Source: Selaginella moellendorffii
Lineage: Eukaryota; Plantae; Lycopodiophyta
Assembly: GCF_000143415.4 (NCBI RefSeq)
Contig: NW_003314420.1
Span: forward strand, 128,123 to 192,122
Direction: 5' to 3'
DNA: 64,000 nt
Shown here: in pieces, positions 1 to 40,369 of the stretch
Position numbering within the stretch: the first letter of the stretch is position 1
Layout: each line of letters begins with the position of its first letter
Position numbers and translations under genes: made by a program
Notes under the pieces: model-generated
The model's database searches: none
What the model saw: only the letters and a program-made list of their open reading frames with translations
What the model was told of the DNA's origin: nothing

Positions 1-3000
1 AGACAAATCCAATACCTATAGAACAAATGAACACTCAAGAACCAAACATTACATTGGCGACCACCTCTACTCCATTAAAAGAGCTTCGTCCTAAACGTTC
101 TTCTAAGGATTCTCGCGTTAATCGACCTATATGTTTCTCCCGCGCTTGTGCTACTTCACTGCTGGTTACAATTCTTCCATCTAGCACCTGTATACAAAAA
201 CATATTTTGTGCGAAATACATGATGCTTTTACCTTAAGCTTTTTCATACTGTATATAGAGTAGGTCCTGTACTCTGAACATTGACATAAAGCATTGCCAG
301 ACAAGTCAACAACCATAAGCTTTGGAAGCTCCCGTATATGTAGGAGATCACGCATGTCAGAGATTTGATTGTTTGCCGCATACAGCTCCATCAGACATAT
401 TAACCCACTCAAGCCCTGTAAAGCATTATGTGAAATGTTGACATAGTATGATTATAATTGGGTACCTTTAAGGACTGGATATAGTTTCTCTCGATTGAAA
501 GCTGAGTCAAGGCTCCAAAGCCGTGCAAATGAGCACAAGATGTAAGATAGTTTCTGCTAAGGTCTAGCTTCCAAAGGGATTGCAATGGAGGAATACCTTT
601 GACCTTTGCAATTGACATTTTGAAATCAAAACCATAAGTTTTCTTCATTTTAGTGTCTACCTGTTCGATATGGTTGTTGTCAAGAATGAGCTCTTCTAAA
701 AATGTGCATGATTCTAAGTCTTCAATGGTGGAAATGTCATTGTTGGACAGCAAAAGCCGTCGGAGATTTGGAAGCTTGCCAAAGGACTCCATCTTTCGAA
801 GCTTTTGATCTTCCAGATGCAACTCCTCAATCTCATCAAACCAGGCTTCATCCTGATCAAGTTCCTGAGCATTATGCAAGTGTTTTACCCTGTTAAGAAT
901 TCGAACTTTAGGTTCTAGCATCTGCCAGGGGTTATGTCCTGGCGTTTGGCCGCGAGTTTTGGCGAGGTCTTCATGGCCACCCAAAATCGTTGGAAAAGTA
1001 AACTTCCATTCAGAAAAAGAATTGGCGATGACATAAAATTGCTTAGCATAACTTTCATCCACACGCTCTTCTGTTTAACGATATAGTTAGGATAAGGTAG
1101 TCTTACAAAACACTGACCAGTGGAGATTGGCAAGCTATCTAGAATTAAAAGTGATGGTACATGTCTTGAAACCACTTGTCTGTATGAAAACTCTTCTTCT
1201 AGCGGATTGTTTCTCATGCTGAGGCTTTGCAGTCCGGGGACCTGTGAGTGAAACTATACTTAAAACCTCGTCAGAACTACAAAGTTTTTACTTGTCCATG
1301 AAGAAGCTTCAAATCAGTCGAACACCATATCTCATTGCCTGTCAAGTCAAGTACTTTCAAGTTTACTAGTCCCGATAGGCCTTCTATTCTTTTTATACAA
1401 TTAAAACTCAAATCCAGCTTTTCCAATGACGTGACACCTTCTAGTCCTTTCATTCTGGATATTTTGTTGCACGATAATTCTAGTACTTTCAGATGTACTA
1501 AACTCTTCAAGGCATCAATCTCGTCAATGTTGTAATTGTGAATGTTGAGATGTAAAACTTTAGAAAAATCGTGAACAGTATGATTTTTCAAAATCAAGTC
1601 GTTTGTTAGCAGAATCGATTTGTCAGAAAGTTTTATCCTCCGACTGCGTTGATGTCGTGGAGAATGATTTACAGTTCTAGATCCCTTAGCTGCTACTGTT
1701 TGTATAGGATCAGTAAAAGGTATACATTTCCAAGAGCCTCTGTCTTTATCTGATTCGCACTCCGATGTGAAAAGCATGCGCTTTTGTCTGGCTGATATTC
1801 TCTGCGTGATTTCTCCTCCGTTTTCGTTGTGGTAAGTATACTGAAATTCGACCAGATATTCAGGCACTACAAGGGTGGACTCAAAGACAAACCACGACCG
1901 TTGTACGGGGTCAGATGGATGAAGTCTATAAACAGAATCAGCTCCCGGATAAGTGGACTTTTTCGCTGCAGGCGAGGCTAAATTGACTGCCATTACAAAC
2001 TGGTTCATCATGTTAATGAACAATTTGTTGAGGGTAATAGTTACCAGTAAGATCCTGGACCGAGCAACCAAGGTAAGCTTTCACAACCAAAACCCAGCCT
2101 GGAGCCTTTATATTCCAAGGGGACTCTGTCTGCAACTGCTCAGCAATCACCTGCTCAGAATCCAAGTCAAATAGATGAAAATTCATAAAGTTATTAACCT
2201 GAAGGCGGCGCACATCTGCTAAACCAATAGAATTTGAAAGTAAAACTGGCCCATGGCAGCCATGATTAGACTGTCCAGGCAAGTAGGGGAATCCCTCCTC
2301 CACAATGCACTGAAATTCATCTGCGCATTGCAACGTTTCCCCGTAAAGAAGGTACTCAACATGCTTCTTTCTAGATTTAACCACCTGAAATAATGAAGTG
2401 AACGCCATAAAATGGAAAAGAAGTCAGTCCCACCGAACCTTTCCTTCAAAGCCTTTCTCCCACCGGTCTTGGAGGAAGCGATTATGTATACGTATCACTT
2501 TCAGTACACGAACCCCAGTGATACCAAATGGAGAATAGTCCAGTAATGAAAATCTTGAGGTCACTAAGTTGTCGCAGTTTTTAAACCAGACATCCCTTGG
2601 ATTCCCTATTTCCATGCGAATGTTACCACCTAAGAAAAGAAGTGCGTTAGTGTGGGTGAAAACGGGAAGTAATTCAGCCGAAACCTGTGTCAAGCTCCAG
2701 CTTGAGCCAGTGTATTTTGCGCTCTACAGCAGCTCTTTCCTTGGCTCTGACAATGTGCATGTCCTCTCTTAGTGTATCCAGGCGTGCCATTACATGCGAT
2801 ATTTGATTCTCAAGAGTGGTAACCATGGATTTGGAATGATGCCACCAATCTTGTCTTCTGGATTGCTCAAGCCCCACAAATGAAGTCTTAGTAGACCTGA
2901 AAGCTTCTTGAAACTCATGTGCCTGCTTCATTTGCTGCCTCAGATCCTTTTGATTTCTAAATAGCTTTGCAAGTGTTCTACAAGGAATATTGGCTTTTCA

Positions 3001-4116
3001 GGTCAATAGCTTGTGTCATGTAGCAACAAAACTACTTACTTTTGAAGACTTCTTGCACGTCTTGACTCACATTTCACAGACAGAGATGCAATATTCTCCC
3101 TATTGTGCTGCAAAGACTTTATGCACATATTATAGTAGACTCTCTTCCTGGTATAAGTAGCTTTCGCAGCCTGTTTGAGTTCCTCTGCCATATCCTCCGA
3201 ATCCAGCATAATTAACTGTTGCATACGGAAGAGGATATAAGTCTGCGAAAAAGCCAGGTAAATAACGATAAAATTGTAAGCAAAACATAAATCTACCTGA
3301 TAATTATGAAGCAAAGCTATAGGACTACTACCCCAATTCGGGTCGGCAAAACGTAAATCCCTTAAAAACTTTAGCCTTGTCAAGTTCCCAATCTCCTGCA
3401 GTTGTTTTCGATTTAAGTAAACATTTATATGCTAATTGGACGACTAACCTTAAATGATCCTATCCCAGTGGCGGCAACATTAAGATGTTCCAGCAGTTTC
3501 AAATTTACAATATCTCCAAGCTGACTTATGGTGTTGCATGCGAGATTGAGCTCTCTTAGTCTCGCAAGATTTTCAAGCCCCTCCACTTTCTTAATCTGAT
3601 TGTTTGCGAGCCAGAGAACTTCGAGACTAGAAAGATGGGAGATATTCCTAACTTGACTGATTTGGTTGCTATGCAAATAGAGTTCTTTGAGCCTAAAACA
3701 ACCATCCAGGCCTTCAATCCTGCAGCCCGACCAAGTTAATTTTTCAAGATGTATCATGTTAAAAAATTCTAAACCTTTGAATATGATTTTCATTAAGTCG
3801 AAGGACTTCCAGATAGGGACAATTGTGAAGCCCATGAATTCCCCCAAGATTTTGCTGAACCAGGGAAAGTGAGACAAGGTTTGGAAAGAAAGACATGCAG
3901 CAAATTCGAGGGAGGGTGTGCATAAACATTTCGACACTTTTGATAGTCTCTGGAGCAGATACCAATTGTTCCTCTGTAATGTCGTTGTATTCGCAGATAT
4001 CCTGTAAAGCTGTTTGGAAAGAGATAGTTGAGAGTCTGAATGAAAAGAGCGGCGAGTTTTACACCTTGGCACTCGTCTGGAGAAACCATTCGCAAAATCT
4101 GCTTTAAGTCTCCCAT
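1..4116 (-). CDS. LRRC9: Leucine-rich repeat-containing protein 9-like (multi-exon, runs off the window start); SDS22-type LRRs flanking a PARP-like domain
   Basis: Consecutive minus-strand ORF pieces are separated by ~50-bp GT-AG introns. Motifs match LRRC9 as I recall it: VEMFMHTLPRICCMSFFPNLVSLSL, LRDLRFADPNWGSSPIALLHNYQ, RKRVYYNMCIKSL, WFKNCDNLVTSRF...RVLKVIRIHNRFL, RSWFVFESTLVVPEYLVEFQY, plus many LxxLxLxxNxI repeats. The start at ATG 4116 is inferred and exon borders are not all resolved. Confidence 0.85.
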
Positions 4117-11064: not shown

Positions 11065-12164
11065 TGTAAGCCACAAATTTTTCTTTTTTAATTTGCTAGC
11101 TCACCTCGTCTATCCGACCGACACTTCCTTCGACTTAGCTAAGTTCCCTCACCAAGATTCCCATCTATGGTACCAGCTCTTACTTGGTTTCATCTACTCA
11201 TTACATGAGCAACAGAGCGTTAGTTATCCATCCACAAATTCCCAAATCTCTCCCAATACCCCTCCCCAGTTAAATTGGACTTAAGGTTTGGCTACACTCC
11301 CAAGAGGCACAAGCAGCCAAGCACACTAAGCCTCTAAATTCTTAACGTCCCTTGGTACCACAAGATTTAATCATGGGACCCTTTAAATCCCAAGCCTTGG
11401 GTGCCACACTTGCTCTGGGATATAGGGGGAAACACCATGGCCTAACGGCCCAGTATGGGTACTCATACTCCCCCACTTCCATCTTGAAAGGAAGGCCCAA
11501 GCCCCTAGCCAGAGCGAGGACCAATGAGCCACATGGTACTCAAGTGGGGTACCACTCCACATGAGCCGGGAGCATCATAGTCGATTTCCCTTTCGGGAGT
11601 GGGAGTTGCTCTTGAGCACTTTCTGGGGTGGCCCCTCTGGCACCACCCAAGTCCATGCTCACTCCCAGCCAAGGCCCCTCGGCCCCAGTCTCAACCTCAA
11701 GTTAGTTTGGAAGCACCATTAGAGAGTTCCTTCAAGACTAGTTCCTAGACCTCACTATCCTTACTATACTTTTGGAACCACATGCAGCCCCCCCCCCCCC
11801 GGGACACACACGCTTTGGGCTTTCACCCCTCGACCTGTATTAATACTTGGACTCAGTCTTGGACTTGATCTCGGACCCGATCTCGGACCCAACCTCGGAC
11901 TTGGTCTTGGACTCGATCACAGACTCGACCTCGGACTCAACCTCGGACTCACTCTCGGACCAGATCTCGGATCTTGGATTTTGTCTCGAACTCGATCTTA
12001 GAGTCGGCCTTGGACTCGATTCTGGACTCTATTTCGAACTCAGTCTCAAAGTCAATCTTGGACTCGATCTCAGACTCGATCCCATTTGATGAACTCTTTA
12101 TTATTTCGATCGTGCTTTTGGGGATCCTTTAGCCTACAACACCTTGGGGAGTTGGTTTCTTACA
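11065..12164 (-). mobile_element. Family-C solo LTR inserted in gag
   Basis: TGTAAGCC...TTCTTACA flanked by TSD AATAA (11060-11064, 12165-12169); gag resumes after it. Confidence 0.85.
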
Positions 12165-12199
12165 AATAATAAAGGCCAACGAAGGATTGGTATATACCC

Positions 12200-13502
12200 T
12201 CATTTGACCAACAAAGGACTGGCATACACCCTCATTTGTTTATAATAGATGAGTCCAATTCTTTCTGCATAACCTATTTTCTCTTCTGTTGGCAGCTCAC
12301 TTCTCTAGTGAGCTTCTCGCGCCTCTTGGTTCCTTAGCAACACTTCTTGTGCTAGACCATCATTCTCATATGTTGTTCGCACATCATCCCAAAATGTTGT
12401 TGTTGTGCTAGAGATCGTCAACTTCAAGCTTGCCTTTTGACTTAGAGCATTTGCCACAATGTTGTTCTTCCTAGGTTTATACAGAATCTTGAAATCAAAC
12501 TCAGCCAAAGCATTGGCCCATCAACCTTGTTTCCCTTTTAGGTCAGGCTGCGACAAAAAGTGTTTTGTTGCCACATTATCCATGTAAATTTTTAAGTGCC
12601 TCCCAAGGTAGTGTTGCCACTCCTTGAGCGCCTTGACCACTGCAAATAATTCCCTCCAGTGGGCAGGCCACTTTTGCTGAGGCTTGTTCAACTTCTTCGA
12701 GAAGAACACCACTGGATAGTTATCTTTCTTCAAAACTATGCCCAACACAAAGTTAGAAGCATCTGTTTTTACCTCAAAGTCCTTACCAAAGTCTGGTAAT
12801 GCCAACACGGGAGTCTTCCTCAACTTCCCTTTGAGGTGGACAAATGCCGCTTCACATTCCACTGTCCATACCATTTTCCCTCACCCGTTTGGTCCGTTAA
12901 GGGTAGGGCTACTCTTGAATAGTGTTTGATAAACTTTCGGTAATAGTTGCACAGCCCTAACAATGCCCTCAACTCATATACATTCAATGGTCGCTCCCAT
13001 CCTTGGATTGGTTGGACCTTCTTAGGGTCCACCTTAAGCCCGTCCTTGCCCACCACATGCCTGAAAAACTTTACCTCTTGTTGAGCAAATTCATATTTGC
13101 TCTCTTAACATACAGCTTGTGTTCCCTTAGTTTCTCAAATACGTCAAATGTTCGGCATAGTCCTCTAGCATTTCACTATAGATCAAGATGTCGTCAATAT
13201 AGACGACCAGAAAGTGATCCAAATAAGGTACAAAGATGTGGTTCATCAATGCCGAAAATATTGCCAGCTCATTGCATAGCCCAGAGGGCATCACTAGAAA
13301 CTCAAAGCTCCCATACCTTATCCTATAGGTTGTCTTCTCAACATCTTCCTTTGCTACCCTGATCTAGTAGTATCTTGACTTTAGGTCAATCCTTGAGAAG
13401 TATTTTGCCTTTAGTACTTATCAAACAGGTCCTTAATCCTTGACTTGTTCTTCTTTGTATACTTGTTGAGCAACTGGTAGTCTATACACATATACATAGA
13501 TC
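12200..13502 (-). pseudogene. Ty3/gypsy pol relic, copy A, 3' part (RT, RNase H, start of integrase)
   Basis: ORFs with VGKDGLKVDPKKV, LLGLCNYYRKFI, FEVKTDASNFVLG and YKPRKNNIVANALS; frameshifts and stops. Confidence 0.9.
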
Positions 13503-13728: not shown

Positions 13729-16700
13729 ATGGCATGCGCGCACACACTATTTGTTTGTTCATTGAGCGTGTGGTGAGCTTTCCAAGATGAACGTCATTCC
13801 TATTAGCCAGACATATAACTTAATGGTGAGAACATTTAGATATTATTCAATGTTATCTTTTTCTAACGAATCTAATTGTGAAGGTGTAGCAAGAGGCATT
13901 GCTAGTCTGGAGAAGTCATTTAACTCATTTGACCCTTAGTGTATTTTCATGAAACTAAATAACATTCACATTATTAAGGAATTTCTCTAGTACCTTTTTT
14001 TTATGACATAGAGGCTTGCATTTCTTTCAAAGGTGATTTAGTAAAAGGCCTGAGGGCACATGCCATTCTATTTCTCAGACCGGTATTAAGATATACTAGT
14101 GCAAAGGGAAAAAGGTATTTGGTGATCAAGTAAATGGCATGAGGGCACACGCCATTATAAGCCTAAGCGCTAGTGGACACCTCCTTTTTGGTACTCTCAG
14201 CGGTACTATCATCCTTCTCCGGGTCAGTTGTTTTGCTTTGGATTGTTGTCTCTAATGTTACTGGGGCGTTCTCAATAGTTGTTAATGTTGCCGTTTGTTC
14301 AGAAAAATGATCACCTGGAGTATAGTACAAGGAGTTTGGAAGACTTATATATTCTACATCTTCACCTATCTCCTTCTCCATCTCCTTTTCTGCCTCACTT
14401 ACAAATTTTGTGCTTGCCATGAGAACGCTCTTCACCCTAAAATATGGAGTTCGTTGTGTTATAAAAGGAAACCAACACCCACGCTGCAAGGGAATGATGG
14501 TACATAAAGCACGTAAGCCCACAATATGGGTTTATGTGCCATTAATATGGGCCACACGCCATATTATTAGATTTATGCATGTGTGATTGGTAAATGCATA
14601 TGTCACATCATCTTTGTTTTACCTCACACACTATATCAGGCCTAATGAACCATATCACATGTGCGCACATGCTATATATATGGAGAAGTGTTATGCAAGG
14701 ATAGAAAAATTCAATGCATGATTGTGGAGAGCAATGGCATGAAGCCACATGCTAAATAACATTTTAGAGAAAGAATTAAAATAGAAACATGCAAACAGTA
14801 CTGAGTGGACCAAGACTTAGAAGTGCACAATTGAATGAGGTATTTCTAATAAATATTTCACTCACCTCATATAGGAATGGCTACCACTCTCAAATGGCGT
14901 ATCGCCTCATGCCATCACCTCGCAATTTGTTATAACAATCCGATGAATTCATATTCAGCTTGTTCACCTTGAACTTTAAGTAAGATTTGCTAGAACAACT
15001 AAGAATTTATACATGTTATTTGTATCATCTCACCTAGGAATGGCGTAAGGCCACATGCCATCACGCCTCCTTTGATTCAGATTCGGATTGTTCACCTTGA
15101 AATAAAATACATTAGAAACTTAGTAAAGGAATATTAATGAATCTCACCTTGAACCCGGGTTATGAATGCTCTTGCTGCATCTCTTGCATGGTCTGGCAAG
15201 GTGATGGTGGCACTCTGCTTCCGCATCCAACCATGCACAAGATTATCCACTGATATGCTCATACTAGGATCCCTTGGATTCAGCACCCATCTCTTTTCTA
15301 GGCAATCCTTCGTATATCCGAAACTTGGCTTGAACCACTCCACAGTTACATTGAAGGAGTTAGTTTCCACGTCCTCCTCTGCATCAGTGATGCAGCACCC
15401 CACCCATATCATTTGTTTTTTATTACTGGGTCTGACAAGCACGACCATTCCTTTGCAGACCTGTACTGGATTGAATGTTGAATCCAGCTTCTTGTTCCTC
15501 GGCCCACAATAGTGATCCTCAACATCGTTATTTGTCACTACATTTCCAGAGGACATTGTTCCGCTACTATCTGGTGCTCTAGGTTCTGGCCAAAAGGACT
15601 CTTCCAATTCTTCATATACAACCGGCCCATTTTGGATAGCAGATATAATCTTCTCCTAGTATTCGAGCAAAGGCTTGCACCTCTTAAAATAGGATTCTCC
15701 ACCAAACACCAACCCCCTCTTCCAGAAGGCAATATGCTGTCTAATCCCGGCCACTATACTTTCCTGGTCTTTGAGTCCATCCGGGTGCATCGGCCGTGGG
15801 GAACCCTGAGGAATCATAGGTTCCCCAGTTATGGGATCTCTCTTGAAGAGTTCAATGCCGTCCACTGGCAGCCACACTGTGTCCCATTCTCTCATCTTGT
15901 ACCTCATCACTGGAGCACCGTCATGCATGCTGAAATGAAACTGAAGAGGCTTGGAGTGGCCAATCAGCGTTTCGGATTCGTCCCTGATGTAGCCTCTTAC
16001 AAACCCCTTAAAGTCTGGAACCTCTGTCACAAGTGCAGCTTCAATAGTGCCTTTGATGCAATTTTGGAATTCATCGTAGAGTTGTGGGAGGGTGAGGACA
16101 TTGGATTGCCGGAGGGACTTTGCCAGGTGACTGAACATGGCATCAACGTCTTCATGAGTGTGCCCAACCATGAGAAAGCCAAGTGTAACCATTTCAAATA
16201 TGCCTTTGGCAACAAGCATCGCCAAGTACGCGAAGACGTATATGTTTTTGTTCTCACTGCCAGCATTGTTTGTTTGGAGCAGAAGATGGGGTGGAAGGCC
16301 ATATCGGCCGCAAGAACTTCCTTGAGATTCTGCTTCATTTGGATGAAGCTGTGCATTCACCGGGCGACCAGCCTCATCGAAATGGCATGAGGCCTCACGT
16401 GATAACCCTACAATCTGACGGCCAACATATTCACTAGGATGGCATGGGGCCCCACGCGATACTGCAAGCCTTTGCTCCTCCTCCAGCTGAACCCTGTATG
16501 GGGTTCGATCGACAAGGGCCTTATCCAAGGGTTGGCCGTTCAGCTCAGTCTACGCACTTTGCAGAGACCTTAAGTGTTTTGCTAGGGACTCAATCATCAT
16601 GTTTGCACCCCCGCCACCCCATAGAGGTACAAAGAAGTTCCCATAGTTCTGGGCACCATGCCCATGAGCGATTATGCCAAACAGAGACACAGGCAGCTGC

Positions 16701-19302
16701 ATGGATGAAGAGATTGCCTTGGGGGCAGGATTGAGTCGAGGTAAGCACGTCTTTTTCTGGTCCATTTTGTCGTGGATGATGCAGAGGTAAGAGTCAGGTC
16801 TCTCCATGGAGAGAATCCTGTTATGATAATATGCAGTCCTGCAGCTTCTCTACTCGATGTTGTGGTCGAGCCGCCTTCTAACCAACGTCTCTCGCTCTTG
16901 AGCGCTGTAAGAATTCTTCGACAAAGCCATTTTGATAGCAGTGCACTCGTCACACTTTGAAAAGCTGGAGTACTTTCCTATACTCACATCCCTAAACCTG
17001 TTGCTCCACAATCTACTAAATCTAGATTGGCTCAGCTTCCTATAGCCATTACTCTAGAGTTCCCGATTCACATCTTCCAATATGGCCCCCTTGGTATACA
17101 TGGAAGGGAGAACTCGTTGGGTGTCTCGTGTTCCATCTTCCAAGAGGCGGGTTTTATGTGGTTGCTGCTCGCTACATGTCGCGACAAACCTCTTGAAGAT
17201 TGCCTCTCCATATACAACATGACCCCTGGTTTTGTGTGTACCGTCGTTCCCATGGACTGCCTGTTGAACCCTTTGTTCCTTGAACTCAGTTTTGATTCTG
17301 TAAAATGTGCTTCGAGGGACTCCATAAATGATTCTCCATGCCTTCATGCAGACCAAACCCCTCTGGAAGACCATGCCCCCCGCCTGATGTTCTGAAGCAT
17401 CAACAGATGACCTTAATGCCTCATACACAAAATTGCGAGCTACCTTCCAGGACAATATCTTGTATCTTGCTCTCTCCTCTTCAATAGCATCCCAATCAGC
17501 ATGTTGACAGCACCTCCTCTTGCAACAAGCAACTGTCGAGACCATTCGAACCTCCATCGCCATTTTCTGCCTTTTCGGTTCGTTGCTCAAATCCCTTTGG
17601 CTGCGCTTTAGGAAGGTGTACTTTCTTTTCCCATGAAGAGATGTTCTGTCATCAGTTGTAGTGGTGTTTGATTGTGAATCTTTCACATTCTCAAACACTA
17701 AGTGCCTCAATTTCCTCCGCACAATGCTTCCAATAGTCAGACTGTTTTCTTCTGTGTCAACAACCTCTAAAATCGCAAGTCCAATATCATCCCAGCCCAA
17801 TTCTTGATTAGCAACCGCATCTCTTGGATCGACAACTGTGGCTAAGCCCTCAGCTACCACCTCCCCCTCGGGGTTGTTTAGAAACACCTTTGCTTGAATC
17901 CATGTAGCACGGTTCTTAAGATCCATGGAGGGAACATGCGTCTCACTTGCGCTATCCCCAACATCTGCTTTCTTCTGAAGATTTTTCAAGGCAACAACAA
18001 CATTTACCCCGACGACCATCTCTCCTCGTTCAATAGCGACCACATTCCCATCGAAGACAGTCTCTTCTGATACAGCAGCATTGCCTTCCCCAAGCCTTTG
18101 ACAGTGTATAACAAAGTTCTGATCCATAGACACAAGGGTCCCTTTTGCAACTTTCTTCCCACCATTCAAAATGTAAACCTTTTTCCCAACCTTGAAGGCC
18201 ATTCTGAAAGTGCAGAAAAGAAGTTAAGACCATACAAAAAATGATTGGAGAATGGCCTAAATCATAACATACCAAACAACCTCAATAGCATGAGGCCACA
18301 TGCCATTATTCAAACATGCTATTGACACCTACGTGAAATTTCGCATTCACAAAATTGGCATGAGGCCTCATGCCATTAGTGGTACCACTAATGGCATGAG
18401 GCCTCACGCTATCTTTGGCCCCTGCTAGCCTGTTGCTATATTCCTTTTGCCTTGCTGCAACTGTATATATGGGGCCAGGCTAGCAGGGGCCAAAGATGGC
18501 ATGAGGCCTCATGCCATCTTGATATACACACAGCTGCAGGCAAGTAAAAACATACATGACAATACGCTAGCCATGAAATTGCAAGGGCCCAAGATGGCAT
18601 GTGGCCTCATGCCATTTCTAAATGTGGTCCTAAGCCATTCCATGGTGAACATACCAGGAAGCACAAGTGCCGAATATCAAGAGGAAGCGGTAGCCACACC
18701 AAAGACAGTGCCGCTCGCAACACTGCAACTACTCGTAGTGCCGCTCGCAACACCGCAACTGCTCATAGCGTTGCTCGCACAAACTACCACTAGCATAAAC
18801 TGCCGCTTTCAATGGCACTCGCAATGCCGCAACCGCTTGTAGACGCATAAACCACAGCTCACAACGCCGCTTACACAAGCAGCGCTCACTACGCTCAGCG
18901 AAACCAAGAATACGGCGCACAAAAATGATAGACCTAGGAATGAGTTCGAGAATTCAAAAATAACACACGCTTGAACCTCACATCAAATCCTCTGACAAAC
19001 CAGATCTTATGATTCCTCTAACAAATTTCAAACTGAGTAGCTTCTAGACTTTGCTGTCGGAGGTTGAACTTTGTCACATCATGTCCTTGCCTCAATCCAG
19101 CTGTGCCATGTCAGTGATTCGAAGTTTGCCATGCCGTGTCAGCGATCCCCACCAAGATTATTTGCCGTGTAAAGGAATAATTATGCTGTGTGTGTATGTC
19201 CATTTATGGCAATATAAGGCCACACGCCATTCAAAGAATAATGCTAGTCGAGCATTTTTTGGTGCATTTTTGGGTTCAAAATTGCATGAGCCCACACACT
19301 AT
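13729..19302. repeat. Dispersed 22-bp palindrome, consensus ATGGCATGAGGCCTCATGCCAT
   Basis: Copies start at about 13729, 14045, 14134, 14541, 14654, 14734, 14894, 15040, 16382, 16439, 18285, 18355, 18391, 18496, 18594, 19209, 19281; none noticed outside the TIR element. Confidence 0.85.
15134..18202 (-). pseudogene. Putative DDE/DDD transposase, ~1022 codons, four in-frame TAG stops
   Basis: ORFs 17054-18202, 16550-16807, 15656-16528 and 15134-15607 share one frame; stops at 17054, 16850, 16550, 15656. Motifs CCKRRCC, VCMKAWRIIYGV, FSKCDEC, IIHDKMDQ, LLLQTNNAGSENKN, FLMVGHTHEDVDAMFS. Confidence 0.8.
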
Positions 19303-20382: not shown

Positions 20383-21373
20383 GATCCATCTTTCTTTTTC
20401 ACAAATAACACTGGTGCCCCATATAGTGACTTGCTCAACCTAACATACCCTTTTTCCACCAACTCTTTTAGTTGGCGCTTGAGCTCCTCGAGTTCTCTTT
20501 CATTCAAACAATAGGGTGGACAAACCACTGCTTTAGCACCATCGACTAGCTCAATCTTATCTTCTATCGGTCGTGCGAGGGGCAACCCCACCAGTAGCTC
20601 CTCGGGCATGGTATCTTTGAATTGGTCTAGCACTCGTTAAATCACTAAAGGTACTTATTCCATTCCCGTCTTTTTGTCACTCTTCGCCGAGGGTAAGCAT
20701 AAAAATGTTGCCTTGGTTCCTTTAGTGAGTTGTCCTCTTGTGGACACTAGGTTTAAGTAGGAGTCTTTGGCTTTACATTGCCCTACCTTCAGATTTTGGG
20801 CCTCCCCCCTAGATCATTTTCCCTGAGCATTCGCTAGTACCACAAGGTTCCTACCTTGTCCATGTAGGGCTATTATGAACCAATTGAACCAATCCATCCT
20901 GAAGATTACATCAAACCCCACGATGTCCAAAATGGTGAAATCCATGTCTACTTTCCATGTCCCTACTTCAACTCTCGCTCGTCAAAGTACCTCATCAGTG
21001 CTTTGGCTACTTTGAACAAATTTTATAGTCCTTGGTTCACCTAGTCGCTACATCGTTAGTTTGGTTTGCCGAACTATGTCTACAGCCACAAAATTATTCA
21101 AAGCACCCGTATCAATAAGGATCTTAACAAAGCTACCTCCGAGCTTCCCTTAGAGGGTTAGTAGATGTCATGAATGACTCTCTACCAAAGTTGCTTCTGT
21201 AATGAGTAACTTTGAGCTAGGGACTAGATTACGTACCTCAGTTTAGATTTCACCCGACTTAATGGCCATATTGGCTCTAGCCTTTTTTGGGTAGGGACAT
21301 TCTCTCGAAAAGTGTCCCGCTTCACCGCAATTGAAGCATATGTTGTTTCCCACACTACTATCTGACTTGACTA
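20383..21373 (-). pseudogene. Ty3/gypsy copy A, 5' part (gag zinc knuckle, protease, RT N-terminus)
   Basis: [16 protein letters not shown]; inverted homolog of 21450-22450. Confidence 0.9.
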
Positions 21374-23850
21374 CTAGCTACGGAAAGGCAAATCCGGTGG
21401 CCAGCGAGCGAGTACGTGGGGGAGTCAAGCGAAAAGAGACAAACCCACGGATAAGAAGGTCAAGTCGTATAGTAGCGTGGGAAACAACATATGCTACAAC
21501 TGCGGTGAAGTGGGACACTTTTCAAGCGAATGTCCCTACCCGAAGAAGGTCAGAGTCAATATGGCCATCAAGTCGGGTGAAGTCTGAACTGAGGTATGTG
21601 ATCCAGTCCCTAACTCAAAGTTACTCATTACACAAGCAACTTTGGTAGAGAGTCGTTCGCGACATCTACTAGCCCTCCAGGGGAAGCTCGGAGGTAGCTT
21701 TGTTAAGATCCTTATTGACACGGGTGCTTCGGATAATTTTGTGGCTGCAAACATAGTTCGGCAAGCCGGACTAACGGTGCAGCGGCTAGGTGAACCAAGG
21801 ACTATAGAGTTTGTTCAAGGTAGCCAAAGCACCCATGAGGTACTTTGACAAGCGAGAGTCGAAGTGGGGACTTGGAAGGTGGACATAGATTTCACCGTGT
21901 TGGATATGGCGGGATTTGACGTGATCTTCGGAATGGATTGGTTCAATCAGTTCGTGGTAACCCTGCATGGACAAAGTAGAAACATTGTGGTACTGGCGAA
22001 TGCCCAAGGAAGAAGATCTAGGGTGGAGGCCCAAGATCTAAAGGTAGGGCAAAGCAAGGCCAAAGATTCCTGCTTAAACCTGGTGTCCACGAGAGGACAA
22101 CTCATTAAAGGAACCAAGGCAGCATTTTTGTGCTTACTCTCGGTGAAGAGTGACAAAAAGACAGGAATAAAAGAAGGGCCTTTAGTGATCCAACGGGTGT
22201 TGGACCAATTCCAGGATACCATGCCGGAGGAGCTACCGGCGGGGTTGCCCCCCGCCCGACCGATAGAACATAAGATTGAGCTAGTCGATGGTGGTAAGGC
22301 AATGGTTTGTCCACCCTATTGTTTGAACGAAAGAAAACTCGAGGAGCTCAAGCGCCAACTAAAAGAGTTGGTGGACAAAGGGTATGTTAGGTTGAGCAAG
22401 TCGCCGTATGGGGCGCCGGTGCTATTTGTGAAAATAAAAGATGGATCTATGCGCATGTGCATAGACTACCGGTTGCTTAACAAGTATACAAAGAAGAACA
22501 AGTACCCTTTGCCAAGGAATGAGGACCTGTTCGATAGGTTGGGAAAGGCAAAATACTTCTCGAGGATTGACCTAAGGTTAGGATACTACCAGATTAGGGT
22601 AGCCAAGGAAGATGTCGAGAAGACAACCTGTCGAATGAGGTATGGGAGCTTTGAGTTTCTGGTGATGCCCTTCGGGATATGATGTAATGCGCCGGCAACG
22701 TTTTCGGCGCTGATGAACCACGTCTTTGTACCCTATCTAGATCACTTTGTGGTCGTCTATATCGACGACATCCTGATCTATAGCGAGACACTAGAGGAGC
22801 ATGCCGAACACTTGGCGAAGGTGTTTGAGAAACTAAGGGAACACAAACTGTATGCTAAAGAGAGCAAATGTGACTTTGTTCAACAAGAGTTAAAGTTTCT
22901 CGGGCATGTGGTGGGCCAGGACGGGCTCAAGGTGGACCTAGAGAAGGTCCAAGCGATCCAGGAATGAGAGCAACCATCGAATGTACATGAGTTGAGGGCA
23001 TTCTTGGGGCTATGCAACTACTACCGAAAGTTTATCAGACATTATTCAAGAGTAGGGAAGCTTGGGAAGCCTGGGAAGAGCAACATCATGGCAGATGCAC
23101 TAAGTCGAAAAGCGAGCTTGAAGTTGGCGATATCCAGTGCAACAGCAACCTTTTGGGATGATGTGCGGACAGCATATAAGAATGATGGTCTAGCACAAGA
23201 AGTGTTGCTAAGGAATCTAGAGGCACGAGAAGCTCACTAGAGAGGTGAGCTGCCAATGAAAGAGAAAACGGGCTATGCAAAACGCAACGGAATCATCTAT
23301 TACAAGCAAACGAGGGTGTATGTTCCAGAAGGGGAACTAAGGAAGGTAGCCTTAGAAGAGTGTCATGATGGACCTCTTGCGGGACACGGTGGAGTGTCCA
23401 AGATGATGGGCTTACTCAAGAGGAAGTATCACTTGCCAGATATAGCTAAGGATGTCCAAGACTATATAAAGACATGCCCAACATGTCAGCAGGTCAAAGC
23501 CGTGACTAAGGCCAGTGGGGGCTTGTTGCAAAGCATCCCAATTCCAGATCGTCCATGGAAATGTCTTACGATGGACTTCATCACGGGACTCCCCCCAAGC
23601 GAGGGGTTTGATGCGATATTCATGGTGGTGGACCGATTTTTGAAGATGGCACATTTCATACCCACCACAACGGAAGTGGATGCGAAAGGTGTAGCAAAGC
23701 TGTTCTTCGAACAAGTGGTTCGAGTGCGGGGAAGTCCAAAAGAGATTATCTCAGATCAAGATAAGATCTTCACTAGTAGGTTCTGGAGAACTCTCCTAGA
23801 ATAGTATCGCACCAAGTTGAAATTCAGCACAGCCTACCACCCACAGATAG

Positions 23851-23897
23851 GTATGGGGTATTAAGTCAAGTTTGATGGCACTAACACTTCTTGACAG
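23851..23897 (+). other. 47-bp spliceosomal-intron-like insert in the integrase core
   Basis: GTATGG...GCACTAAC...TTGACAG; removal gives STAYHPQIDGQTERVN in frame. Confidence 0.8.
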
Positions 23898-24315
23898 ACG
23901 GACAAACGGAAAGGGTGAATAGGCAGCTAGAGGATTATTTGTGATGCTATGTCTTGGGAGACCAGACCGATTGGGTAAGTCATTTGGGATTTGCGGAAAT
24001 GTGTTATAACAACTCACCACATTCGAGTATCGGGGTGAGTCCATGGGAAGTCATCAATGGGCGAGCTATTGAAGGTCCTGTGGAACTCGGCGTGGCCGAG
24101 TATCATGGAGAGTTACCCGTAGTGGAAGCATTCACGGTGGAAAGACTCAACATCTGAAATCTAGTGAGGGATTCCTTAGAACAAGCTCAACAAAGGCAAA
24201 CCAAGTACGCGAACCAGAAGCGTCAGGATGTAGAGTTCCAAGCTGGGGAGAAGGTGTGGTTGAACACCAAGAACCTCAGGCTACCAAGTGGGATCAGCTA
24301 GAAGTTGACCCAAAG

Positions 24316-24367
24316 GTAAAAATGCAGGTATTCCTGTAAATGAAGTGATCTTCAGTTCCTTAAGCAG
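24316..24367 (+). other. 52-bp spliceosomal-intron-like insert in the integrase GPY/F region
   Basis: AG|GTAAAA...TTAAGCAG|GT; removal gives KLTQRFVGPYEI in frame. Confidence 0.75.
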
Positions 24368-24470
24368 GTTCGTGGGGCCTTACGAGATTGAGTCACGAAT
24401 CGGTAAAGTGGCTTACCGTCTCCGACTTCCTCGAGAGATGGGGAAGATGCACCCAGTATTCCACGTGAAC

Positions 24471-27400
24471 TCTAAGAGGTTTAGCGAGAACTAAACCAAT
24501 AAAAGGAGAGAACCACTATATGTGGTCCAATCAGTCTCTAAGTTGGAGAGACTACCCTCCTTAGAGGATATGCAAAAAGGCATGGTGAGCCTTCAATGCC
24601 CAACCATTGACGAATATGGAGAAGGCATGGTGAGCCTTCAATGTCACACCATTGACAAATATTGGCTACGTACCAAGGATGGAAATGGTAACACATGCGG
24701 GTGTTACTTTATAAAATGGTTCACCGTTCGATGAGGACATCGAACTTCGTCCGCGACTAAATTTTTCATTCTACTTTAGTCACTTAACCACACCTCTGAC
24801 CACTTGGAGGAGTCTCATTCACAACCTCCATAAGTCCAATCCAGGACTTGGGACTTGCTAGCCCCGAGAATGGCATCCATGCCACTCAACATTTGCACTT
24901 GGTCCAAGTGCTCCACGTGTCCGATCCCGTGACCGACACTCAAAGGTACCACCGACATAGCAGCCCGTTACGCTAAGGCCATGCCCAATCACCTTTGCCA
25001 CACTGGTAGTCCAACACCACTTGCATCACCGTCTTGGCTCTCCAAGACTAGGGAAACCATCCGTGAGTGGTCATCTCAGATCCACTCCTTAGCATCCCTA
25101 GGATGCCCACCGACAAGGGGAATAGCCTTCCCCAATATCCCTCTGTCAGTCCCCACTAAGTCCCTTTCTGCCCCTGGCCGTGTTTGCCAACACTGACTGC
25201 CACTGGACCGAGACCCACAGGCCCGACCACTAAGTCCCACAGTCCTCTGGGACTTCCTCCCCACACGACTGTGTTCTTGGTCACTACCCCAGAGGACTGC
25301 TCCTCTTCCTTTCCACAGTCTGGGCCTTTGGGACAACATTTCGGAACACCGTGACCTTACGCGAGCCACCTGGGTACTCTCCCCGCCTTTTGCCTTTAGG
25401 TGCTCTAGCCATGGGCTTAGAGCGAGGTTCCGTTGTGCCACGCCTGGTATCCAAGTAGGTAGTGCCACCCACACTTGGACTGGGAGCATCGGCCAGTCGA
25501 TCTCCCGGGGGAACTAGAGCTGGCTCTTGAACACTTCACCAAGCTACCCCGCTTGTCGGTCCATGTTCACTCTAGTCTTGGACTTCCCAGTGGGCAGCTC
25601 ATCACCCAACATTGGGTCCGGCCTTCCTGGGCCAAACTGGCCTTTCCTGGCCAAACTGGCTCCACTGCAGTCCTCCCCCTACTATACTTTTGGAGCTCAC
25701 CAAACCCCCCAGGGTCTGGGAGACGAACGCTTTGGGCTTTCACCCTCTCAGGCTCCGGACTCGGACTCAGACTCGGTCTGGGTCTCGGTCCCGGACTCGG
25801 TCTCGGTCTCGACCTCGGACTCCATCTCGGACTCCATCTCGGACTCCATCTCGTTCCTCAAGCACTTCGTTGTCCGAGGTGGACCCGAGTTGGAGTCTGA
25901 AGTGGAGTCCGAGATGGACCCGAGATGGACCCGAAATGGAGTCCGAGATGGAGTCTGAGATGGACCCGAGATGGACCCGAGATGGAGTCCGAGATGGAGT
26001 CCGAGATGGAGTCCGAGATGGAGTCCGAGATGGACCCGAAATGGAGTCCGAGATGAAGTCCGAGATGGACCCGAAATGGAGTCCGAGATGGAGTCCGAGA
26101 TGGACCCGAGATGGAGTCCGAGATGGAGTCCGAGATGGACCCGAGATGGACCCGAGATGGAGTCCGAGATGGAGTCCGAGATGGAGTCCGAGATGGAGTC
26201 CGAAGTCGAGACCGAGACCGGGACCGAGACCGAGACCGAGACCGAGACCGACACCGAGATCGGGACCGAGACCGAGACCGAGGCCGAGGCCGAGACCGAG
26301 CCCGAGCCCAAGTCCGAATCCGAATCCGAATCCGAGTCCGAGTCCGAGTCCGAGTCCGGAGCCTGAGAGGGTGAAAGCCCAAAGCGTTCGTCTCCCAGAC
26401 CCTGGGGGGTTTGGTGAGCTCCAAAAGTATAGTAGGGGGAGGACTGCAGTGGAGCCAGTTTGGCCAGGAAAGGCCAGTTTGGCCCAGGAAGGCCAGACCC
26501 AGTGTTGGGTGATGAACTGACCACTGGGAAGTCCAAGACTAGAGTGAATACGGACCGACAAGCGGGGTAGCTTGGTGAAGTGTTCAAGAGCCGGCTCTAG
26601 TTTCCCTGGGAGATCGACTGGCCGATGCTCCCAGTCCAAGTGTGGGTGGCACTACCTACTTGGATACCAGGCGTGGCTCAACGGAACCTTGCTCTAAGCC
26701 CATGGCTGGAGCACCTAAAGGCGAAAGGTGGGGAGAGTACCCAGGTGGCTCGCGTAAGGCCACGGTGTTCCGAAATGTTGTCCCAAAGGCCCAAACTGTG
26801 GAAAGGAAGAGGAGCAGTCCTCTGGGGTAGTGACCAAGGACACAGTCGTGTGGGGAGGAAGTCCCAGAGGACCATGGGACTTAGTGGTCGGGCCTGTTGG
26901 CCTCGACCCAGTGGCAGTGTTAGCAAACACGGCCAGGGGCAGGAAGGGACTTGGCAGGAACTGACAAAGGGACTTTGGGGAAGGCGATTCCCCACGTCTG
27001 TGGGCATCCTAAGGATGCTAAGGTGTGGATCTAAGATGACCACTCGTGGACAGATGGCCAAGTCTTGGAGAGACGGGATGGTGATACAAGTGGTATTAGA
27101 CCACTAGTGCAGCAAAGGTGAATGGGCATGGCCTTAGCGTAACGGGCCGAGACGTCAGTGGAACCTTTGGGTGTCGGTCTTGGGACCGGACATGTGGAGC
27201 ACTTGGACCAAGTGCAAGTGTTGAGTGGCATCTTGGGGCTAGCAAGTCCCAAGTCCTAAATTGGACTGATGGAGGTTGTGAATGAGACTCCTCGAAGTGG
27301 TCGGAGGTGTGGTTAAGTGACTAAAGTAGAATGGAAAAATTAGTCGCTTACAACTTGGTATCGGAGCTGTTCCTTAGTCTGACTTTTATTGGTGCTCAAG

Positions 27401-32232: not shown

Positions 32233-32490
32233 CTGCTTCGCAAGGACCAAGTGAGACCTTTACCTGAGGTTATCCAAGGGGAAGAGGAATACGAAGTCAA
32301 GGCCATCCTCAATGCGCACAAGAGCAAGCGACAAGGACACAAGGTGAGAGAATTCCATGTGAAATAGAAAGGATTTCCACACTACGAAGCAACATGGGAA
32401 CCGAAGGAGAACCTAGCGAACGCGCGAGATTTAGTGGAAGAATTTCTGCAAGGCAAAACTCTATGTATTTATGCAAAGTTCAATTAAAAA
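32233..32490 (+). pseudogene. Integrase C-terminal chromodomain of gypsy copy B
   Basis: LLRKDQVRPLPEVIQGEEEYEVKAIL...FHVK*KGFPHYEATWEPKENL continues directly from HPVFHVN at 24470. Confidence 0.85.
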
Positions 32491-33025
32491 TATCAATTTG
32501 TGAAATTGAGCAATGGCATATGTTGGGACCCTATCGCGAATGTGACTTCGGGTATCAAAAGTTACCTGTCGGCCAGTCCTTACGGACACTCTTACCTTAC
32601 TGCCACGATGGCAGAAGGTCAGTATTGCTGGACCCTTTATCAGTCCCTCTTGTGTTAGTGGAGTTAACTGGGCATTTCGAGTGTACTTAGACCGGACGAG
32701 CATAAGGACGGAATTCCTACGTGTTATTAGCTAAGCATACTTAGCCCGGTAAGGAGTTCTCGTCTCGTTTTGTCTTGCACTTGCTAGTGACAAGAACCCT
32801 CGCGTATTGAGATTAGTCCCTAAATATCGCTACATGATAGCTTACCATATCTACCAAACACCCTCGCTATCATGCCCTTTGTGTTAGTCTCATTTCGGTC
32901 CCAAATGCTATGTATGGAAAGTGTCCAGATTTGCTCCTTTGGCATATCTACAGAATGTAGAGATCGGTCTGAACACAATGGTGTTCGTCCCATGTCCAAA
33001 TTCACAATCTAGGGACATTCCATAT

Positions 33026-35140
33026 TTAGTAAATTTCGAGCTTTTCCCAGAGACTAACTCCTGATACTAAGGGAAGCTTGGGGTGAAAGCCCAAAGCATG
33101 TGTTCCTCAAGGGGGGGGGGGGGGGGGGGGGGGGGCTATAGGGGGTTCCAAATGTATAGTAGGGATAGTGCGTAGGTCGGGCATGGCCAACCAACCTGAG
33201 GCATAGTCTAGCTCCCGCTTGGGTGCCTGTCCTTGTTCTGTGTCCGGCTTGGGTCTAAGCCCAAGTTCCATTCCATGCTAGCTGGTGGAGTACCCATACT
33301 CTCACGTTAGGCCACCGGTATGCCGAAATAGCACTGGACTCCGTTTGGCTCTGTTTTGCGTGCTGGTCCTGGCATTGGGATGCTGGTTGCTCCAGGACTG
33401 TTCCAAGTCGCTCCGGGCTCCTGTCCCTTTGCTCCTTGGGCTATATGCTCGGGAGTTGCTCCGTGGTCCGGTTCCATCACTCCTTAGCGTCACGCTTGGG
33501 AGTTTGGCACCGTTCCTTCGTTCAGTGGCCCAAGGCCCTGAACCTTGGGTTCCTATGGCCACATGGCATGGACACATGGCATGTGACACATGGCATCTAT
33601 CACATGGCACAAAGAGGGTTTAGGTTCCGCTTCGTGGTGTTATCCTATGGTAAATCACTATAGGATAAAGGGTCAAAACCACGTGCGCTACATTTGGTAT
33701 CAGAGGGTGAGTCTCAGCGAGTACTATTCAATGAGATTGGGCAACTAGTCTCGTTGCATACGCAAAGATGAAAACGATGATCCGAGTGGGTACACGTTTT
33801 GGTGCAAAGACTTCGCATTGGTTCCTTGGGTATGGATATTGTTACCTTATTGTACCTTATGATGAGAGCTTGCGCTTGGGCTCATAGGATGGATTTGAGT
33901 TGTTCCGGTAGCACGAGTTTAAGCTTGAGCTCGTGAGTGAGGCACATTAGCAACTCGAGGTTACACTTTGAGTTGGCAGGATTAATGTTAGCCTATCGGT
34001 GGTTCCATGAGTTGTTCCATGTACCATGGGTGCAAATAAACTTTCCCTGGGTTTGTTATGAGTGGCAAATAGGCTGGTCCGTAGCTGTTTAGCACGGCAC
34101 TAGTGGATCCTTCCTAGGCATGATTATAAGTGGAACAATTAAGACTATAGGGATTAGTCTATTGGTTCAAGTAGTCATGGCCGTGCTTTCTCATAAACTT
34201 TTCTTTGATTGAACTGAAAGCAGTGCGAAAGCAAGCTTGAGGTTTGGTCAAAAGATGAGACCGAAAAGAGAGTCATCGGGGACGAAGGATCAAATACGTA
34301 AATCATTTTCTCTTCTTGGAGAGATGATCTGCAACGAGGTGTTAACTCATTACTTGTGTTCACATCATGCAATCAAGAGTCCCTATCTTGATGCATGTTG
34401 GAGATGGTGGTCTTACAATGGTGAGTTGTGGGATGGATAGCGCTGAAGCGCTAAACCATTTTGTCTAAACTTGCTATTGGAAGACTTGGGTTGCAATGCT
34501 CAATTCTTTTTCGAGGAACCTTGCTATTGCTCCTTGAGTAGCTTGGTGTTGGATTAGTTTTGAGTTTGGTCAGAAAAAGAGTGGCATGAGCTTATCTGTG
34601 TTGTGAACAAAAGTTAGTGATGTTGGGTGTTGTAAATCTCTATCGGTGGAGTGTGGCATTTATGTTGCATTTTGTCAAATCGAGTTGACACTTGATATTC
34701 ACATAAACCTTTAAAGTAATGACATGGGCATTGCTCATAGTATTGCTTGATTGACGATCAAGTCATTGTGATTTATATCATATTATCCATATGATAATGA
34801 GCAATGTGTTTACGAAGTTGCTTGGGTAAATGTTGATCAACCCCAAAGTGGTTGATGGAGAAGCTAGTCTACTTGCACGAAGTAGCATTGTAGTAGCTTT
34901 GACTGGATTCTCAATGGTGGTCCATTATGCTAAGCTTAAGTTGGTACCTTGCTTACTTGAGTTTGCCCATCAGGTATTGGAAAAGGGTTATAGCATTCAC
35001 TTGCTATGACTTGTCGGTTGATCCATTAGCACTTGGAGTAGATTGTTGGATGGAGAAGATGTGTAGTTGGGGCATTGACATCACTAACACTTGTGTTAGT
35101 AGAAGTGGCATAGTTACTTCGAGTGATGAGGAATTTTCCT
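33026..35140 (+). mobile_element. Family-D LTR 3' part (ends GCGCTACA ~33692), PBS and non-coding internal region
   Basis: TGGTATCAGAG follows the LTR end; 25-nt poly-G at 33111-33135; reverse homologs at ~7900-8640, ~9130-9737 and 38783. The LTR start was not identified. Confidence 0.65.
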
Positions 35141-35273: not shown

Positions 35274-35733
35274 TTACCTAGCCACTGCACCATTAATCGG
35301 GCTTGCTAGACTATGTGTGAACTCCTCTTAAATTTCCCTTTACCATATGTTCCTCTTAGTTTAGCTCCTTTTTTGAATGTGGACCTTGACCCCGTTGGTG
35401 TTCCCTTTTCATAGGTTATTATTAAAATGCACCTTTATAGCTGTATATAATGCTTTCTTATAGTTGGTTAAGTTTTACTGCATCACCTTGCCTTGAGCCG
35501 AGGTTTGTAAGCCTGATATAAAGGCATGGAATGCATCCATGTCACCCATATCCGTGACAAGGATCCTTTTGGCCATAAACCCATTCATATACTCTTGAAT
35601 GTTTTCTATCTACTTTAGCCTACTCAGCTCATCCTTTAGGTGCAGAGTAGCATTTGGAGGAACATAAAATGCATAAATCCTCACCTTCATCACTTCTCAA
35701 GTGGCCATCAGTCCTTTGTTGGCCTTTATTATT
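35274..35733 (-). pseudogene. gag fragment bounded by family-C LTR ends
   Basis: Reverse homolog of 36915-37290; family-C LTR ends at 35273 (-) and starts at 35734 (+). Confidence 0.75.
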
Positions 35734-38780: not shown

Positions 38781-39589
38781 TACCTTCGGTGCGCCTTCGG
38801 GTCTGTAGCGCACGTGGTTTTGACCCTTCAACACTGACATCCGCAAAGTGCAAAATGAACATCCAAGGCTTGATCACGAAGACCACATCTTCGGATATCC
38901 ACATTGCACTAACACTCTTCTTCAATCACCTTCAAGATCCAATGTGAAGCCAAAACACTAACAAGAAAAATGCTCCGAGACTAAGTTTGAGATTGAGTCC
39001 GAGATCGAGTTTGAAACCGAGTCTGAGACCATGTTCGAGACCGAGTCCAAGATCTGAGATCGGGTCCAAGACTAAATTTGAGATTGTGTCTGAGACAGAG
39101 TCTGAGGTCGAGTCTAAGATCGAGTCTGAGATTGAGTCTGAGACCGAGTCTGAGGTCGAGTTCAAGATCAAGTCCCAGATCCAGTCCGAAACTGAGTCCG
39201 AATACTAATACAGGTTGTGGGGTGAAAGCCCAAAGCGTGTGTCTCCCAAGGGGGGGGGCAGGGGGCTGCAGGGGGTTCCAAAAGTATAGTAAGGATAGTG
39301 AGGTCTAGGAATTAGTCTTGAAGAAACCCTGTGCTTGCAGAGAGTGTAGCTGAACTTTAAGTCCAGTCTAACCTAGGGACGGGGATTGGGAGAGAATTTG
39401 GGAATTTGTGGATGGATAGCTAATGCTCTATTGTTCATGCAGTAAGTTGCTGAAACTAAGTAGGACCAAGTAAGAGCTAGTACAATAGACAGGAATTAAG
39501 GCCAAGGCCATGGTGGTCGGATAGACAAAGTAAATTAGTAAATTGGAAAGGAAAAATTTGTGGGTTATAAGTGAACTAAAGACTATAAA

Positions 39590-40352
39590 GTGTGTTCAAG
39601 GTAGCCAAAGCACCAATGAGGTAGTTTGACAAGCAAAAGTTGAAGTAGGGACATGGAAAGTGGATATGGATTTCACCATGTTAGATATGGCAAGATTTGA
39701 CGTGATCTTTATGATGGATTAGTTCAATCAATTTGTGGTAGCTTTGTACGAACAATGTAAAAACCTTGTGGTATTATTGAATGCCTGAGAAGAATGATCT
39801 AAGGTGGAGGCCCAAGATCTAAAGGTAGGGTAATGTAAGGTAGGGACTCCTACTTGAATCTAGTATCCACAGGAGGACAATTCACTAAAGGAACTAAAGT
39901 AGCATTTTTGTGCTTACTCTCAATAAAGAATAACAAAAAGATGAGAACAAACAAAATACCTTTAGTGATCTAGTGGGTGTTAGACCAATTTCAAGATACC
40001 ATACCAAAAGAGTTACCAAAGGGGTCACCCCCAAACAACTAATAGAACATAAGATCGAGTTGGTCAAGGATGCTAAGGTAGTGGTTCCTCCCCCTTATTA
40101 ATTAAACAAAAAAGAACTCAAGAAGCTTAAATGCCAACTTAAGGAGTTGGTGGATAAAGGGTATGTTAGTTTGAGTAAGTCACCATATGGGCCCCAATAT
40201 TATTTGTGAAAAAGAAAAATGGCTTTATGCACATATCCATAAACTACTGATTGCTCAATAAATATACGAAGAAGAACAAATACCCTTTACCAAGGATTTA
40301 GGACATCTTTGATATTTTGGAAAGGCAAAATACTTATCAAGGATTGACCTAA
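39590..40352 (+). pseudogene. Third, more decayed gypsy protease-RT fragment
   Basis: Homologous to 21810-22575 with many C>T/G>A changes. Confidence 0.8.
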
Positions 40353-40369
40353 ACCCTAAACCCTAAACC
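40348..40369 (-). repeat. Interstitial plant telomere repeat (CCCTAAA)n, ~3 units
   Basis: CCTAAACCCTAAACCCTAAACC at the break of the RT fragment. Confidence 0.75.

Follow-up and report, generated by a model that had tools for sequence, protein, structure and literature searches.

Two short introns in the integrase gene of a Ty3/gypsy retrotransposon family of Selaginella moellendorffii, and how they might be kept

Retrotransposition is classically proved by the loss of introns from the sense strand, and the reporters used in the field are built on this loss. The locus described here raises the question of how a long terminal repeat (LTR) retrotransposon could keep two introns within the gene of its integrase. 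The window, meaning the whole stretch of 64,000 nucleotides (nt) of Selaginella moellendorffii DNA that was analysed (contig NW_003314420.1, positions 128,123 to 192,122), carries a dead copy of such an element together with siblings of it. By its domain order, gag-protease (PR)-reverse transcriptase (RT)-RNase H-integrase, with RNase H being seen in a sibling and in 431 letters of an RNA-type contig (run X17), the element is a Ty3/gypsy LTR retrotransposon. The reading that we judge rather probable is that its family, very likely the known SM1-Galahad, possesses two introns that some transcripts lose by splicing and that nearly all DNA copies retain, with unspliced RNA being packaged and doubly spliced RNA serving as the source of the family's own integrase.

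Two introns in an integrase gene

The surviving part of exon 1 (21381..23850, forward strand) carries the end of gag with a CCHC knuckle, the protease, RT, the scar of an RNase H deletion, the integrase zinc finger and the Asp codons of the integrase at 23574 and 23754 (Asp_protease, RVT_1, Integrase_H2C2, rve), and was found to match Ty3 Gag-Pol (7q5b) with an E value of 2.5e-27. It is followed by an insert of 47 nt in phase 1 (intron 1, 23851..23897, forward strand), which splits the D,D(35)E triad of the integrase after the second Asp and before the Glu. The original prediction had described this insert with a GTATGG donor, an internal CACTAAC and a CAG acceptor, all of which were verified in the window copy, where the 3' end reads ACAG and the putative branch-point motif CTAAC starts 17 nt before it. 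Without splicing the reading frame meets a stop at 23862-23864, whereas the spliced frame reads AYHPQIDGQTERVN, so that removal at GT/AG does restore the motif bearing the catalytic Glu, as had been claimed. Between the codon of the second Asp (23754) and that of the Glu (23909) lie 152 nt, which become 35 codons after subtraction of 47 nt; removal of the insert is the sole way to D(35)E spacing, and 35 codons were found between the two residues in 51/51 homologues where both motifs were located. The GTATGG donor holds for the window copy but not for the family, as it differs at +5 (23855) from the majority intron 1 donor, T accounting for 262,277 of the 354,393 depth units at this position in the genomic DNA run X1.

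A second insert in the same copy had been overlooked in the original prediction. Exon 2 (418 nt, 23898..24315, forward strand) holds the catalytic Glu (23909) and the middle part of the integrase, with an internal ATG frame of 318 nt (23999-24316), and is followed by intron 2 (52 nt, 24316..24367, forward strand), which has GT..AG ends and an in-frame stop at 24317-24319 and lies just before the SH3-like C-terminal part of the integrase. Its excision restores KLTQR joined to FVGPY. The start of exon 3 (24368..24470, forward strand) encodes a Tf2-like SH3 domain (PF24626, E 3.2e-14), and the copy is cut at 24470. Alignments to full-length relatives shift frame at both insert sites.

Both inserts have GT..AG ends on the transcribed strand, and their joints are canonical solely in the sense orientation; the joint of intron 1 is placed by alignment 5 nt to the left of the GT owing to a short repeat at the intron ends. 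The size match to host introns proposed in the original prediction was borne out by 14 introns of the host gene LRRC9, which span 36-62 nt with a median of 54 when mapped against S. moellendorffii gene models. The GC content of introns 1 and 2 is 0.40 and 0.37, compared to 0.46-0.49 for the exons and 0.35 for the host introns. No YTRAY motif was found in the window's intron 2, and likewise none in 5 of the 14 host introns. In 24 X1 contigs the alignment loosens within intron 2, where a CTAAT motif is present, as expected if the exons are under constraint and the intron interiors drift. Random 47-nt inserts of the same composition were readable as GT..AG in 0.9-3.9% of simulated cases (50,000 trials per setting), depending on the target duplication assumed, and two random inserts would both be readable in this manner in at most about 0.15%. 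Predicted folds of the introns with their flanks were unremarkable (z -0.6 and -1.9).

Splicing in RNA and retention in genomic DNA

Eight of the 23 sequencing runs were aligned, including three contig runs (X15, X16 and X17) from six listed runs presumed to be RNA; about 12% of each of the raw RNA runs X21, X22 and X23 was read. Contig 11 of X17 (1,083 nt) skips both the 47 and the 52 nt, and contigs 7-11 of this run tile most of 21381-24471 at a depth of 6.7-9.4, including sequence of RNase H length. A half-spliced form is represented by contig 2 of X15 (depth 59), in which intron 2 is skipped at GT..AG but a 46-nt variant of intron 1 remains. X16 does not bridge site 1 and runs unspliced into intron 2 to 24340. 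Raw reads aligned numbered five for X21, one for X22 (ending before intron 1) and none for X23, the latter two runs being uninformative on splicing. Arithmetic on bin depths places one 150-nt X21 read at 23805-24001 with a 47-nt gap at 23846-23892, the same joint as that of X17; it is the sole read crossing site 1 and falls below the listing threshold of the aligner. A further X21 read runs unspliced into intron 2 as far as 24340. A search for junctions at intron 1 had been suggested in the original prediction, and the first of these X21 reads and X17 contig 11 provide them. By their ends, their removal in RNA and their host-like size and composition, both inserts are U2-type spliceosomal introns.

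Some of these transcripts appear to stem from truncated copies. The X16 contig and the X21 read that enter intron 2, which come from different studies, both end at 24340 and pass into other sequence, probably reflecting one expressed truncated locus. The half-spliced X15 contig begins at 23817 behind unrelated sequence, and is therefore likely to derive from a truncated copy under another promoter.

In genomic DNA, 16,895 contigs of run X1 were aligned to the window. Depth at intron 1 was 354,393 (23855), compared to 428,768 (23837) and 154,800 (23942) at its flanks, and depths within intron 2 were 551,552 and 355,183, compared to 666,045 (24300) and 675,699 (24373). No small gap was listed for X1 at either intron, and among eight listed X1 pieces three cross intron 1 gap-free and one more crosses it with a single gap. 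None of the 15 joints listed, of 32 in an alignment that included X1, skips 47 or 52 nt (weakest listed depth 135), a depth that bounds the intronless form at less than 0.04% of the intron-bearing depth. Because X1 depth at both introns is close to that of the flanks and no listed joint skips either of them, the introns are taken to be family-wide. Uniqueness of the insert to one dead copy and absence of junction reads, two of the three outcomes that the original prediction had named as refuting it, were thus not borne out. With a median joint depth of 163, the 354,393 units at intron 1 would correspond to some 2,000 copies, depth being no true copy number. DNA run X10 (organism B) also has the inserts but, being possibly a mixture with the same plant, was not taken as evidence from a second species.

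The suggestion that introns were gained after each insertion is excluded as it was stated, the introns being common to a high-copy family; all that survives of it is therefore one gain followed by amplification at the DNA level.

The family and explanations for intron retention

SM1-Galahad is a Galadriel-clade chromovirus of S. moellendorffii with hundreds of copies, none of them intact (PMC3350952). Its first open reading frame (ORF) has 3885 bp and ends in the integrase core; a second of 316 bp comes next, and a third of 309 bp carries a chromodomain. Its LTRs of 1076/1146 bp have a poly-G tract of 11-25 nt, after which comes a tRNA-Met primer binding site (PBS) (PMC3350952). The window element shares with it the host, a first ORF that stops within the integrase core (at 23862-23864), downstream ORFs of 318 and 309 nt with the chromodomain in the third, an LTR candidate of over 1 kb with poly-G, a PBS-like motif of the tRNA-Met type and a high copy number. 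For the first ORF, 2901 nt are accounted for here against the 3885 bp published, the other 984 nt of gag being non-contiguous in the window. The supplement of PMC3350952 gave no match to 'Galahad'. The family is very likely SM1-Galahad, an assignment made by layout rather than by alignment to the published sequence. The two introns would explain the three-ORF layout, which is left unexplained in PMC3350952, where no word beginning 'intron' or 'splic' occurs.

The chromodomain lies further downstream in the window (32233..32487, forward strand; PF00385, E 5.2e-12 for 32233-32469). This piece is probably the rest of the integrase copy, past a 7.8-kb nest of other repeats, because the last 7 letters of an X1 loose end behind 24471 equal 32233-32239 and because length arithmetic across the 24470/32233 link gives a third ORF of 309 nt. 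The word 'chromovirus' in the original prediction is thus supported by PF00385 at 32233, but the copy itself stops before the chromodomain and the term depends on that link.

Protein searches returned no member of the family, the best identity among 122 matches being 54%. The motif is uninterrupted at site 1 in 67 of the 122 and at site 2 in 22, with the others ending earlier or missing the pattern; some end near site 1 (such as P0064, P0097, P0098 and P0110), these matches having been compared as proteins, not as DNA. A 22-base exon-2 pattern was present at 14 metagenome loci, all of another gypsy family and all open across both sites (14/14), and in none of the viral contigs searched. These 14 contigs (L001-L014) of an unrelated, intronless family have 22-26 bases identical to the exon junction region. 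Exons 2 and 3 share 30-49% identity with outside relatives and exon 1 shares 38-50%, making them about equally alignable. As the outside relatives are without both introns, these were most likely gained in the SM1-Galahad-like lineage. With regard to a possible introner, raised in the original prediction, the introns have no terminal inverted repeats, and the repeats of 5 nt and 4 nt at their ends say little on target duplication because they overlap the splice consensus. No 12-mer of either intron recurs elsewhere in the window, and none is common to both introns.

The coding content of the RNAs can be predicted from the sequence. Unspliced RNA would encode Gag-PR-RT-RNase H and an integrase stopping before the catalytic Glu; splicing of intron 1 alone would lose the SH3 part and the chromodomain, so double splicing would be needed for the full chromo-integrase. 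In the mechanism proposed, unspliced RNA would be the packaged genome and doubly spliced RNA likely the sole source of the family's own working chromo-integrase, with particles taking up integrase made from spliced mRNA and reverse-transcribing mostly unspliced RNA. The first option in the original prediction, an integrase gated by splicing with packaging of unspliced RNA, is of this kind. Since LTR elements copy packaged RNA, and sense introns are lost in retrotransposition reporter assays (PMC12786077), the family would have to copy unspliced RNA almost exclusively; otherwise intronless autonomous copies would have accumulated. Selection of unspliced RNA might come about through a routing of spliced RNA to translation, or through a packaging or copying signal within the 99 intron bases. 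More tentatively, the introns may have been turned into a switch, in which genome RNA and integrase mRNA differ by 99 bases and the particle copies nearly only the unspliced form, reading either splicing history or an intron signal. If true, the amount of integrase, and with it transposition, would be governed by host splicing.

Several points weigh against this proposal. The evidence comes from genomic DNA and RNA-type runs, from which packaging and integrase supply are deduced. Transcript data are sparse (five, one and zero raw reads, with the single junction read under the listing threshold), X15-X17 are only presumed to be RNA, and the samples behind the RNA runs differ from that of X1. 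Because one contig can combine two RNAs, splicing of both introns within a single molecule is only presumptive, and contigs convey neither strand nor abundance. RNA that keeps an intron and has a premature stop may be degraded. A single intronless genomic copy may be hidden among the 17 of 32 joints that are weaker than those listed. For SM1-Galahad an LTR identity of 90.2% is given and no target site duplication was found; the closely related SM2-Galahad of the same genome has a single ORF, hundreds of copies and LTRs that are 99.7% identical (PMC3350952).

The existence of such a relative allows a different explanation, which we regard as unlikely: that the introns are real but incidental, the insertions having crippled the integrase, with the family spreading via unspliced RNA by means of an integrase borrowed in trans from an intronless relative such as SM2-Galahad, a source that the original prediction had not considered, and with splicing in the transposing cells being too rare to matter. 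SM2-Galahad is closely related, and its abundance, open ORF and near-identical LTRs would suit this role; the majority intron 1 donor is weak at +5, the abundant contig of X15 retains intron 1, and no intact SM1-Galahad copy was found by its authors (PMC3350952). However, the simulated chance that two random inserts would both read GT..AG is low, and both fall within the host intron size range, while exons 2-3 and the chromodomain are still recognisable. Furthermore, the few transcripts seen are often spliced, and yet spliced forms are so rare in DNA that a filter against spliced RNA would still be required.

An origin of the introns by a single gain in one inserted copy, followed by amplification of that copy at the DNA level (through tandem or segmental duplications, recombination or transport within a DNA transposon) and with no RNA step having kept them, is very unlikely. 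The lack of an intact copy and of a target duplication (PMC3350952) would agree with this, as would the run of chromodomain, LTR and PBS at 32233-33705, which suggests a tandem or recombined arrangement, and a sibling placed head to head with the window copy. Against it stand the copy number, suggested by depth to be near 2,000 (no true copy number) and given as hundreds in PMC3350952, and the distribution of the copies. These are scattered, and nested with other elements. Scattered, nested copies are the usual picture of retrotransposition.

Least probable of all is a rare intronless master copy supplying both intronless RNA and integrase to an insert-bearing majority of unspliced defective passengers: a single-copy locus of this kind could lie among the 17 weaker joints and the RNA runs are from other samples, but a further half-intronless locus would be needed for the X15 contig, the splice signals and host-like size of both inserts would be left unexplained, and an intronless copy reverse-transcribed from spliced RNA would itself prove splicing.

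Other features of the window and comparison with known systems

The window copy is dead, with in-frame stops, a 3-nt insertion, a deleted RNase H and the cut at 24470, and functional evidence was therefore drawn from its siblings. The scar of the RNase H deletion (23056..23066, forward strand) has GG..GG ends; contig 10 of X17 has 431 letters at this place, and the sibling at 12223-13502 keeps RNase H. A spliced-out intron was considered for this gap and rejected, given these ends and the intact siblings. A third intron at the gag/protease junction (about 21577-21633), prompted by a stop common to two window copies, was likewise rejected: no joint was seen there, and X17 contig 7 is without that stop, on the evidence of only 9 loose letters.

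Three siblings were located: an RT-RNase H-integrase start on the reverse strand (12223..13502, 84-85% identical, ending before the introns), an inverted gag-PR-RT placed head to head on the reverse strand (20383..21371, 88% identical) and a PR-RT on the forward strand (39568..40352, 79% identical). The two copies that face each other meet at about 21372-21406 (within 20383-21458), both beginning near the end of gag.

Following the chromodomain piece is an LTR candidate (32521..33692, forward strand; 1172 nt as drawn) with a clear 3' end, an uncertain 5' end and a 25-G tract at 33111. Two bases past it lies a PBS candidate (33695..33705, forward strand), putatively of the tRNA-Met type by its motif. 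No purine run of at least 10, of the kind expected for the polypurine tract before the 3' LTR in SM1-Galahad, adjoins the drawn LTR start, this start being uncertain. The order chromodomain, LTR and then PBS, with a 3' LTR before a PBS, points to a tandem or recombined element pair. A modestly stable fold is predicted upstream of the G tract at 32900-33099 (z -2.7, 40 shuffles), the best in a scan of 32480-33159. A second poly-G repeat type of about 1.1 kb, at 11063-12165, 35709-36446, 37286-38453 and 38984-39567, shares with the LTR at 33111 just the core around the G tract and adds a tandem array, and is possibly a non-coding derivative.

Elsewhere, the host gene LRRC9/FAP234 (35..4116, reverse strand) is 99% identical to SELMODRAFT_431559. 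Minus-strand ORFs at 15134-18517, including DUF7869 (E 9e-39), lie beside a long inverted repeat (18350-18517) and possibly belong to a DNA transposon. Short telomere-like TTTAGGG/CCCTAAA runs occur at about 19640 and at 40353, the latter being the exact end of a sibling fragment.

No report of introns in the integrase of an LTR element was found in a literature search that left Repbase, Dfam and subscription papers outside its scope, and none are described in the available parts of PMC2864245, PMC6317226, PMC9804982, PMC12130899, PMC7175516, PMC12477816, PMC13148404 and PMC6839031; the text of the REXdb supplement gave no match to 'Selaginella'. A 2025 review presents Ogre and EVADE as the only plant exceptions to intron loss, in the part available (PMC12786077). 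A successful family that keeps two introns in a catalytic gene would break the rule of intron loss in a new place, and would explain the published puzzle of an abundant family without an intact copy. A natural pair of RNAs differing by 99 bases would also offer a way to ask how LTR elements choose the RNA that they package. Annotation of transposable elements based on ORFs will call intron-bearing families dead.

Related arrangements are known from other retroelements. Penelope-like elements also retain introns after retrotransposition (PMC8557442), but belong to a different order, without an integrase or the LTR mechanism. In foamy viruses, Pol made from spliced mRNA enters particles with unspliced RNA (PMC3705302), a likeness in which the particle step is conjectural here; foamy virus splicing removes coding sequence of the gag region, whereas the RNAs of the present family differ by 99 non-coding bases. 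The Ty1/copia elements BARE1 and EVADE possess spliced and unspliced pools with separate roles, the spliced RNA being kept from replication (PMC3735527, PMC12786077), but their splicing destroys pol and yields Gag, where here it completes an enzyme. The closest parallel is Ogre of the Tat lineage, whose intron between its two ORFs stays in the genomic copies but is removed from part of the transcripts (PMC6317226, PMC3735527, PMC12786077), so that, as here, removal of a genomic intron in some transcripts permits translation of what lies downstream, in Ogre pol. An Ogre-type intron is not present in the window element, where protease and RT lie in one frame with no insert between them. Its two host-like introns of 47-52 nt lie instead inside a chromovirus integrase, one of them within the catalytic triad, and RT and RNase H need no splicing. 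The case may be described as Ogre-like splicing control in a new form, in a family that was known but misread.
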